DNA of 63,666 bases, filler included, from Reclinomonas americana ATCC 50394 (lineage: Eukaryota), in the NCBI GenBank assembly GCA_048213135.1. It is 12 parts of 12 records of this genome, joined end to end, with 100 filler letters (N's around TTAATTAATTAA, not from the genome) between each part and the next. Parts side by side here need not be neighbours in the genome. Positions count along the whole stretch, not along the records: positions 7,049 to 13,526 come from AFZH01019525.1; 11 more parts are not named here. One strand, 5' to 3'. Position 1 is the stretch's first letter, and each line of letters starts with the position of its first letter. A program made the translations under genes and the position numbers. Positions 7,533 to 8,612 of the stretch are shown here, piece after piece. The notes under the pieces were generated by a model. The model made no database searches and was not told the DNA's origin. It was given only the letters and a program-made list of their open reading frames with translations.

Positions 7533-8612
7533 ATGTCCACACATCTCCCCTCCCGCTGCCTTTGCGGGCACACCAGCGCCATCCACTCCGTCGCTGTCAC
7601 TGCCGACGGCCGACACATTCTCAGTGCGGGTAACGCGGCGATTGTGCACGTGTGGTCGCTGGCCAGTGGCGAGGAGGTGCGACAGTTGCAGGTACACACA
7701 AGTTGGGTGTATGCGGTCGCCGTCACTCCCGACAGTGAGCACATTGTGAGTGGAGCGGCTGATGGCACCGTGCGTGTGTGGTCGCTGGCAAGCGGCGGAG
7801 AGGAAGTACAGCAGTTGAAGGGACACACTGCTGCAGTGCTGTGTGTTGCCGTCTCTCCGGATGGTCAGTTCATTGTGAGTGGGAGCGACGACATGCGTGT
7901 GCGAGTGTGGTCGCTGGCGAGCGGCGAGACAGTGCAATGGCTGGAGGGGCACACTCGTGCCGTGTACTCTGTCGCCGTCACCCTCGACGGGCAGCATGCT
8001 GTCAGTGGGAGTGGGGACAACACAGTGTGCATATGGTCACTGACGAGTGGAGAACAACTGCGACGGTGGGACCGACACTCGGGAACTGTGACCTCTGTCG
8101 CTGTCACTCCCGACGGCCGGCACGTGGTGAGCGGGAGTTTTGATAGAGCAGTGCGAGTGTGGTGCGTGGAGAGCGGCGAGGAAGTGCGACAAATGATGGG
8201 GCACACGCGCGCGGTTACGTCTGTCACCGTCACTCCCGATGGTCGCCACGTTGTGAGTGGCAGCTGGGACAACACAGTGCGCATCTGGTTAATGGCGAGT
8301 GGCGAGGAAGTGCGGCGGTTGGTAGGGCACACTGGGCTAGTGAACTCTGTCGCCGTCTCCCCCGATGGGCAACTCATCGTGAGTGGAAGCCAGGACAAGG
8401 ATGTGCGACTGTGGTCCACACCATGCGGACTCGCGCAACAGGAGCTCAAATGCGCACAGTCGGCGATGCAAGCAGTGCAGGAGATGCAGGTTGAGGGTGA
8501 AGGGGAAGACGATCCAGATCCGCGCTGTTTGGTGGAGATTGTGTTGCGCTGCTTTCTGGTGGAGGAGGCAGAGGTCATTGTCTATCGCCGCTTCACGAAC
8601 GACAGCCTTTGA
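7533..8612 (+). CDS. WD40 protein A (7 repeats plus conserved helical C-terminal tail), intronless
   Basis: Seven GH..V.SVAVTPDG..VVSGS.D.TVRVW repeats. Start MSTHLPSRCLCGH matches paralogue starts; the upstream part of the 483-aa ORF is CT-microsatellite. Confidence 0.9.
   Translation: MSTHLPSRCLCGHTSAIHSVAVTADGRHILSAGNAAIVHVWSLASGEEVRQLQVHTSWVYAVAVTPDSEHIVSGAADGTVRVWSLASGGEEVQQLKGHTAAVLCVAVSPDGQFIVSGSDDMRVRVWSLASGETVQWLEGHTRAVYSVAVTLDGQHAVSGSGDNTVCIWSLTSGEQLRRWDRHSGTVTSVAVTPDGRHVVSGSFDRAVRVWCVESGEEVRQMMGHTRAVTSVTVTPDGRHVVSGSWDNTVRIWLMASGEEVRRLVGHTGLVNSVAVSPDGQLIVSGSQDKDVRLWSTPCGLAQQELKCAQSAMQAVQEMQVEGEGEDDPDPRCLVEIVLRCFLVEEAEVIVYRRFTNDSL

Follow-up and report, generated by a model that had tools for sequence, protein, structure and literature searches.

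Short helical segments attached to WD40 propellers recur in several well-known eukaryotic proteins, in which they serve oligomerization or docking, as with the coiled coil of coronin, the corresponding segments of POC1 and katanin p80, and the LisH of LIS1. C-terminal extensions that pack on the propeller itself are also known, coronin again being an example. The WD40 repeats of the fungal NLRs of the HET-E type are highly repetitive. A different use of short helical modules is seen in the adaptor boxes: F-boxes and the SOCS-type boxes are made up of three helices, F-boxes lie N-terminal to the WD40 repeats, and true adaptor boxes occur on many kinds of substrate-binding domain. The SOCS box, in the account of its architecture given in PMC4812663, is a C-terminal motif of about 40 residues that combines a BC box with a Cul5 box, in which an LP-hydrophobic-P motif is required for Cul5 binding; the same account includes WD40-SOCS proteins, which carry a C-terminal box of about 40 residues behind the WD40 repeats. 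Among jakobids, the WD40 proteins Gcp1-3 are presented as Pex7-like in PMC8134430, which is unrelated to the question considered here, and our literature searches listed no paper on jakobid NLR-like genes or on the tail described below.

Against this background, we describe a C-terminal tail shared by eight WD40 genes of the jakobid Reclinomonas americana, all found in a stretch of 63,666 nucleotides made up of 12 joined parts (hereafter the window). The tail is a genuine, translated and constrained module of about 55-60 residues. We propose, at a little under even odds (roughly 0.45), that it is a putative handle for intermolecular association, undescribed and restricted in its lineage, which is mounted on WD40 propellers of the NLR type.

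Tail copies in the window and beyond

The segment 8413-8612, which a preliminary description had placed at the end of a WD40 gene, proves on reading of the ORF to be the final ~66 codons and the stop codon of gene A (7533-8612, +). To obtain the gene models, protein B was mapped onto the window and the frames were then read. A regular-expression search of all six frames of the window found the core RCF-x-[LIVM]-E-[ED] at eight ORF ends, and a profile of the seven complete tails, run against the 1429 stop-to-stop segments of the window, returned eight matches, with E-values of 2.9e-41, 4.1e-41, 4.2e-41, 3e-39, 1.1e-37, 6.3e-27, 9.8e-27 and 1e-11, the next-ranked segment standing at E 2.2. The E-values of the seven profile members against their own profile are circular, and independent support thus comes from gene E, which is absent from the profile and accounts for the 1e-11 match, and from the matches outside the window. 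A nine-sequence tail profile gave the same outcome within the window.

Six of the genes lie on the plus strand between 7533 and 15122. Gene A is an intact ORF that encodes a seven-bladed WD40 propeller and a tail at 8415-8612. Gene B (9000..10082, +), our reference copy for structure prediction, is also intact and encodes 360 aa, with the propeller at residues ~10-296 and the tail at residues 297-360 (9885-10082). Relative to B, gene C (10470..11370, +) has a 185-nt deletion that breaks the frame near 10790, and gene D (11773..12851, +) has two 2-nt deletions, with the frame broken near 12045; their tails (11173-11370 and 12648-12851) are intact, and the two genes would be pseudogenes of recent origin or else products of misassembly in repetitive DNA. 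Gene E (13002..13709, +) is a short WD40 ORF whose tail is interrupted by the N run at 13527-13626, its second half being readable at 13627-13709, so that the eight copies in the window comprise seven complete tails and one interrupted one. Gene F (13986..15122, +) has an intact propeller and a tail at 14877-15122, with a longer non-conserved end beyond the tail core. The other two genes are on the minus strand: gene G (52769..53899, -) couples an intact propeller to a diverged tail (52769-52954) with a helix 2 resembling that of the outside protein P0003 discussed below, and gene H (61102..62268, -) is intact, with a propeller 32-35% identical to those of A, B and F and a tail at 61102-61293. 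The intact proteins A, B, F, G and H all begin with a short N-terminus, continue with seven WD40 repeats and close with the tail, with no further domain found; PF00400 (WD40) is matched by A at E 3e-71 in 7 stretches, and also by G and H.

The nine tailed WD40 proteins of the preliminary description are thereby reduced to eight, with profile E-values from 1e-11 to 3e-41. Its assignment of the tail to all of A-F stands by profile, with the qualification that the frames of C and D are broken and that E is a short, gapped copy. The ninth, a diverged tail proposed for 26736-26921 at the end of the 24269-26924 gene, was rejected: it was missed by the profiles at thresholds of both E<=10 and E<=20, aligned to the tail in hhalign with a probability of 0.2% and E 0.27 over 15 columns only, and had a best local score that was reached by 229 of 2000 shuffles and is not above chance. 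The ORF in question, 26136-26921 (+), has weak WD40-like repeats and a hydrophobic, cysteine-rich end with no detectable kinship to the tail, and the long ORFs adjoining it match no Pfam family at E<=1e-6.

Some features of the DNA itself bear on how these genes are delimited. The window, eukaryotic in appearance, has a G+C content of 52-59% and contains 968 N, arranged as 11 pairs of 44-N runs with 12 bases between the members of each pair (e.g., 6949-7048, 13527-13626 and 47101-47200); one pair takes out the central part of the gene E tail, and the first NACHT-WD40 gene is split by another. Several starts are immediately preceded by low-complexity DNA rich in C and T (7250-7530, +; 44212-44330, +; and upstream of G and H). 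This DNA reads in frame as runs of S, L and P and inflates the ORFs counted from ATG to stop, as in the case of 7161-8612 versus the likely gene A start at 7533.

Beyond the window, the seven-tail profile had three matches among 1,835,955,588 representative proteins. P0002 (E 6.3e-21), an EukProt entry, is an ORF of 116 aa in an EST of Reclinomonas americana and has WD40 sequence followed by the tail; P0003 (E 3.3e-11) is a 394-aa contig-encoded protein with a diverged propeller and the tail. The third, P0004 (E 3e-5), is a TPR-repeat NTPase that matches helix 1 alone in 7 stretches and was discarded as repeat noise. The profile search for further carriers, including ones of other kinds, that the preliminary description had in view thus yields two true relatives in 1.84 billion proteins, both of them WD40 proteins, and no non-WD40 carrier; all ten known carriers (the eight window genes, P0002 and P0003) are WD40 proteins, in a sample that is tiny. 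Word-indexed protein searches, which are weak for a 60-residue query, added nothing to this set: the tail of A gave 5 candidates, none of them scored, among proteins of 265-846 aa; none of 8000 scored candidates passed when the tail alignment was used against longer proteins, which is weak evidence; and the P0003 tail retrieved itself alone among 210 candidates. Searches of metagenome contigs (393 pattern matches, none confirmed as a tail) and of the ESM Atlas (no usable tail match) are similarly weak for a query of this length. Taken together, the searches indicate that the tail is an undescribed, lineage-restricted family, with a jakobid EST ORF and a single contig protein as its outside relatives.

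Constraint on the tail and its relation to the NACHT-WD40 genes

In the seven older gene pairs of the tandem array, formed by A, B and C with D and F, together with D-F, the tail has a dS of 0.76-1.76, a dN of 0.13-0.15 and a dN/dS of 0.08-0.19, and the propellers of the same pairs have a dN/dS of 0.29-0.65. By these substitution patterns, the tail is under purifying selection. Pairs that include G or H have a saturated dS, and in them tail and propeller have about the same dN/dS (0.23-0.56 for the tail). In terms of identity, the tail exceeds the propeller in 12 of 15 pairs, and for these the earlier contention that the tail is conserved where the propellers diverge is sustained; it fails for A-G, B-G and F-G, in which the tails are less alike (39-51% identical) than the propellers (53-56%). 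In comparisons with H the tail is 40-54% identical against 32-35% for the propeller, and in comparisons with P0003 it is 41-53% identical against 25-30%; across these two diverged proteins the tail is kept at 40-54% identity on propellers as low as 23-35%.

The duplication history of the array has to be set against these figures, because it could make the tail a mere family signature, with no function of its own, whose conservation would stem only from recent duplication and gene conversion within a tandem array. The 3' flanks of A, B and C are near-identical well past the stop codon, which identifies these genes as recent whole-unit duplicates, so recent that they contribute little independent evidence, and the frame-broken C and D have nevertheless retained intact tails. 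Moreover, dS between A/B/C and D is 0.24-0.29 in the propeller, lower than the 0.76-0.78 of the tail, a contrast suggestive of gene conversion that acted across 7533-12851 (+) on the repetitive parts of the propellers and would not have reached the tail of D. Such a history does not account for D, E and F, which lose their DNA similarity to A-C at the stop codon, nor for the low dN/dS of the tail at the dS values given above; and the tail is also kept in the dispersed and diverged G and H, in the expressed Reclinomonas EST ORF and in P0003. We consider it highly improbable that the tail is a signature of this kind.

The window also contains two NACHT-WD40 (NLR-like) genes, detected by domain search at 44336-48309 (+) and 55186-59262 (+). 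At the profile level, with both the seven- and the nine-sequence profiles, they lack the tail, as the preliminary description had noted. The identity of their propellers to those of A, B, F and G is 48-62%, compared with 53-79% among these four, and in a propeller tree of nine sequences (C, D, E and P0002 being left out as broken or partial) the tailed genes form no supported clade. The two NLRs have a short motif of their own at the C-terminus (48187-48306, +, and 59158-59259, +), which has 14 invariant columns across the two ends and includes L-L-E-R and G-S-F stretches; judged from the alignment, it could be distantly related to the tail or represent a second terminal motif. Their first ~250 residues (44336-45100, +, and 55186-55935, +), which precede the P-loop, have no Pfam match, the N-terminal Pfam matches being to the P-loop only, from residue ~242. 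This region could be an orphan domain, possibly an effector.

These genes raise the question of whether the tailed propellers are sensor-only or decoy relatives of the NACHT-WD40 proteins, with a tail that docks onto the NLRs, for instance onto the orphan N-terminal domain. In favour of this, A, B, F and G have propellers as close to the NLR propellers as to each other, the two NACHT-WD40 genes share the window with them, the NLR N-terminus is without a Pfam family, and the common motif at the NLR ends lines up with helix 2 of the tail. The similarities themselves do not reach significance: the alignment of helix 2 with the NLR C-terminal motif gives hhalign E-values of 0.12, 0.49 and 0.18, and that of the tail with the NLR N-terminus, with which it has a five-residue word in common, gives E 0.16 and is attributed to chance; scores as high as those observed for the tail-NLR similarities are reached by 641 and 66 of 2000 shuffles. 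Gene neighbourhood, for its part, is no evidence of binding. Docking of the tail onto the NLRs strikes us as having a slim chance of being correct.

Predicted structure of propeller and tail

The AlphaFold2 model of B, computed from the nine-sequence alignment (mean pLDDT 88.9, pTM 0.84), has 28 strands, in seven blades of four, the last of which ends at residue 296, with a pLDDT of 90-98 from residue 11 onwards. As all 28 strands are already present by residue 296, the propeller is complete without the tail. The propeller part of the model belongs to the seven-bladed WD40 propellers: its best Foldseek match is 5yzv_B (E 5e-34, 287 columns), and its best VIA match has a Z of 49.8 and an rmsd of 0.8, with 285 residues aligned to 7big_A. 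For all of the 50 solved propellers listed by VIA, the alignment ends at model residue 287-302 and leaves the tail uncovered.

In the same model the tail is folded into a helix at 298-322 (pLDDT 74-77) and another at 332-356 (pLDDT 42-53), values so low for helix 2 that AlphaFold2 gives it no confident placement on the propeller; the low pLDDT may stem from the shallow alignment of nine sequences rather than from real mobility. Modelled in isolation, the tail forms a helical hairpin with helices at 3-26 and 36-63 (mean pLDDT 71.8, pTM 0.51), in which helix 2 reaches a pLDDT of 59-72, above its value in the full protein. We therefore treat the order helix, acidic loop, helix as a predicted fold of moderate to low confidence, and add that the helix-2 segment is rich in beta-branched residues and may not be helical. 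With a mean hydropathy of -0.19 and a helical moment of 1.08, helix 1 is amphipathic, and in the alignment alanines and hydrophobic residues recur along it in a heptad-like stripe; helix 2, at a mean hydropathy of 1.69 and a moment of 0.35, is hydrophobic on nearly every side. Across the nine-tail alignment, the invariant residues are four alanines and one glutamate in helix 1 and, in helix 2, L, V, R-C-F, E, A and V.

Some other functions were discarded on reading the alignments. A peroxisomal signal was set aside because the last residues differ between copies; a tail anchor, on the five charged residues that helix 2 carries; and a zinc site, on an alignment with one invariant cysteine only and no invariant histidine.

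Searches with the isolated hairpin point to a common fold. None of the 488 Foldseek matches had E<=0.001, the best standing at E 0.8, and a wide VIA search of 48,161 chains returned none with Z>=8; the best had a Z of 7.7 (rmsd 2.6, 65 residues aligned), and 655 chains had Z>=5. The matches listed are generic helical hairpins, in common arrangements.

If the hairpin is real, where does helix 2 bury its hydrophobic surface? One answer would be an intramolecular cap, that is, a stabilizing or auto-inhibitory lid that packs on its own propeller and binds nothing else. Helix 1 does follow directly on the last strand and is predicted with a pLDDT of 74-77 when the full-length protein is modelled, the propeller could offer the hydrophobic helix 2 a surface for burial, and extensions of this kind have the precedent of coronin. 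The propeller is already complete at 28 strands, however, and helix 2 is predicted less confidently in the full protein than alone. Further, the tail keeps its 40-54% identity even where the supposed docking surface has dropped to 23-35%, and the closely related NLR propellers do without it. We find a cap unlikely.

A lone two-helix hairpin cannot bury the surface of helix 2, which is an argument for a partner surface elsewhere. From the all-round hydrophobicity of this helix, the lack of confident docking to the propeller and the retention of the tail as the propeller surface changes, we infer an intermolecular role for the tail, the helical-hairpin fold being a prediction of the models. The tail comes directly after a complete seven-bladed propeller, repetitive in the manner also seen in the NACHT-WD40 genes of the window, and consists of a predicted helix 1 that is amphipathic and alanine-striped, then a short acidic loop, and then the very hydrophobic predicted helix 2 with its invariant L-V, R-C-F and E-x-A-x-V positions. 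In the association-handle reading that we prefer, it would either join propellers together or dock them on one shared partner, and the varied propeller set would in this way feed one downstream component. A complex prediction for two copies of the tail (B residues 294-360), with the alignment unused and the fold of the partner uncertain, scored 0.00 against a mark of 0.32, an outcome that weighs neither for nor against self-association. What the preliminary description recognized as a constant short helical module on varied propellers has withstood closer inspection: the module lies outside the 28-strand propeller, is constrained, and persists on propellers with as little as 23-35% identity.

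Comparison with adaptor boxes and other propeller proteins

The likeness that had been drawn to F-box, SOCS-box and PRANC receptors raises the possibility of a ubiquitin-ligase adaptor box, in which the tail would bind Skp1, Elongin C or DDB1 and the propellers would be interchangeable substrate receptors of cullin-RING ligases, as the SOCS box does in WSB. The architecture fits, in so far as a C-terminal box of about 40 residues behind WD40 repeats is described for the SOCS family (PMC4812663). So do the constancy and constraint of the tail across varied propellers, the need of the hydrophobic helix 2 for a partner surface, and the fit of 5 of the 9 tails to a relaxed P-x-x-hydrophobic pattern resembling the F-box start, although the proline is not conserved among the tails.

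The likeness does not extend to recognizable family membership. None of the seven tails matches the F-box, SOCS-box or PRANC models of Pfam at E<=10, in a search in which the HMMER filters may drop matches weaker than ~0.1. Against Pfam as a whole the seven tails have no matching family, the list at E<=10 consisting of five unrelated families with a best E of 0.035, and the tail profile finds none of 177,635 distinct PDB sequences at E<=10. A BC-box pattern and a strict F-box start (LPxE) are each absent from all nine tails. The tail has two predicted helices against the three of such boxes, the ten carriers known include no substrate-binding domain other than WD40, and the fold searches gave generic hairpins only. 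The LP-hydrophobic-P motif, in the form described for the Cul5 box (PMC4812663), is found in 0/9 tails. On this analysis, a role as a cullin-ligase adaptor finds no support in the comparisons, and we would rate it as very unlikely.

A broader version of this idea, which we regard as distinctly doubtful, is that the tail is a new receptor box linking a fast-evolving repertoire of NLR-type WD40 propellers to one effector, either a cullin-type ligase or the NACHT-WD40 proteins, and arose independently of the F-box, the SOCS box and PRANC, giving a system of many sensors with one output. Were the tail to prove a docking box, the design that combines a variable repeat domain with a constant short box would have been invented independently in a poorly studied, early-branching lineage of eukaryotes, on propellers of the kind that NLR-like immune receptors use. 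Recognition of self and non-self, or of prey and parasites, would then become testable in such protists. For the present, the tail is a well-delimited orphan domain of ~60 residues, suitable for registration as a new family and for use as bait.

Set beside the known systems, the tailed proteins share features with several without coinciding with any one of them. They resemble coronin, POC1, katanin p80 and LIS1 in joining a seven-bladed propeller to a separate short segment, here predicted to be helical, but in the searches run the tail shows no sequence similarity or specific fold similarity. Their propellers are like the repetitive ones of the STAND/NLR type (5yzv and 2ymu; Foldseek E 5e-34, VIA Z 49.6-49.8, 39-43% identity); unlike STAND/NLR-type proteins, the tailed genes lack a NACHT domain and carry a tail that the NLRs do not have. 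With the F-box and PRANC they have in common a short helical module attached to repeat domains, and the hydrophobic first helix by which those modules need a partner can be likened to the tail, whereas the F-box differs in that its proline is not conserved in the tail, which also leaves too few residues for helices 2 and 3. From the SOCS box the tail is set apart by the absence of a Pfam match and of the Cul5 motif and by its two predicted helices in place of three. Nevertheless, like WSB1 and WSB2, the SOCS-box receptors described in PMC4812663, these proteins place behind a WD40 propeller a short C-terminal helical box that is constant across varied substrate-binding domains.
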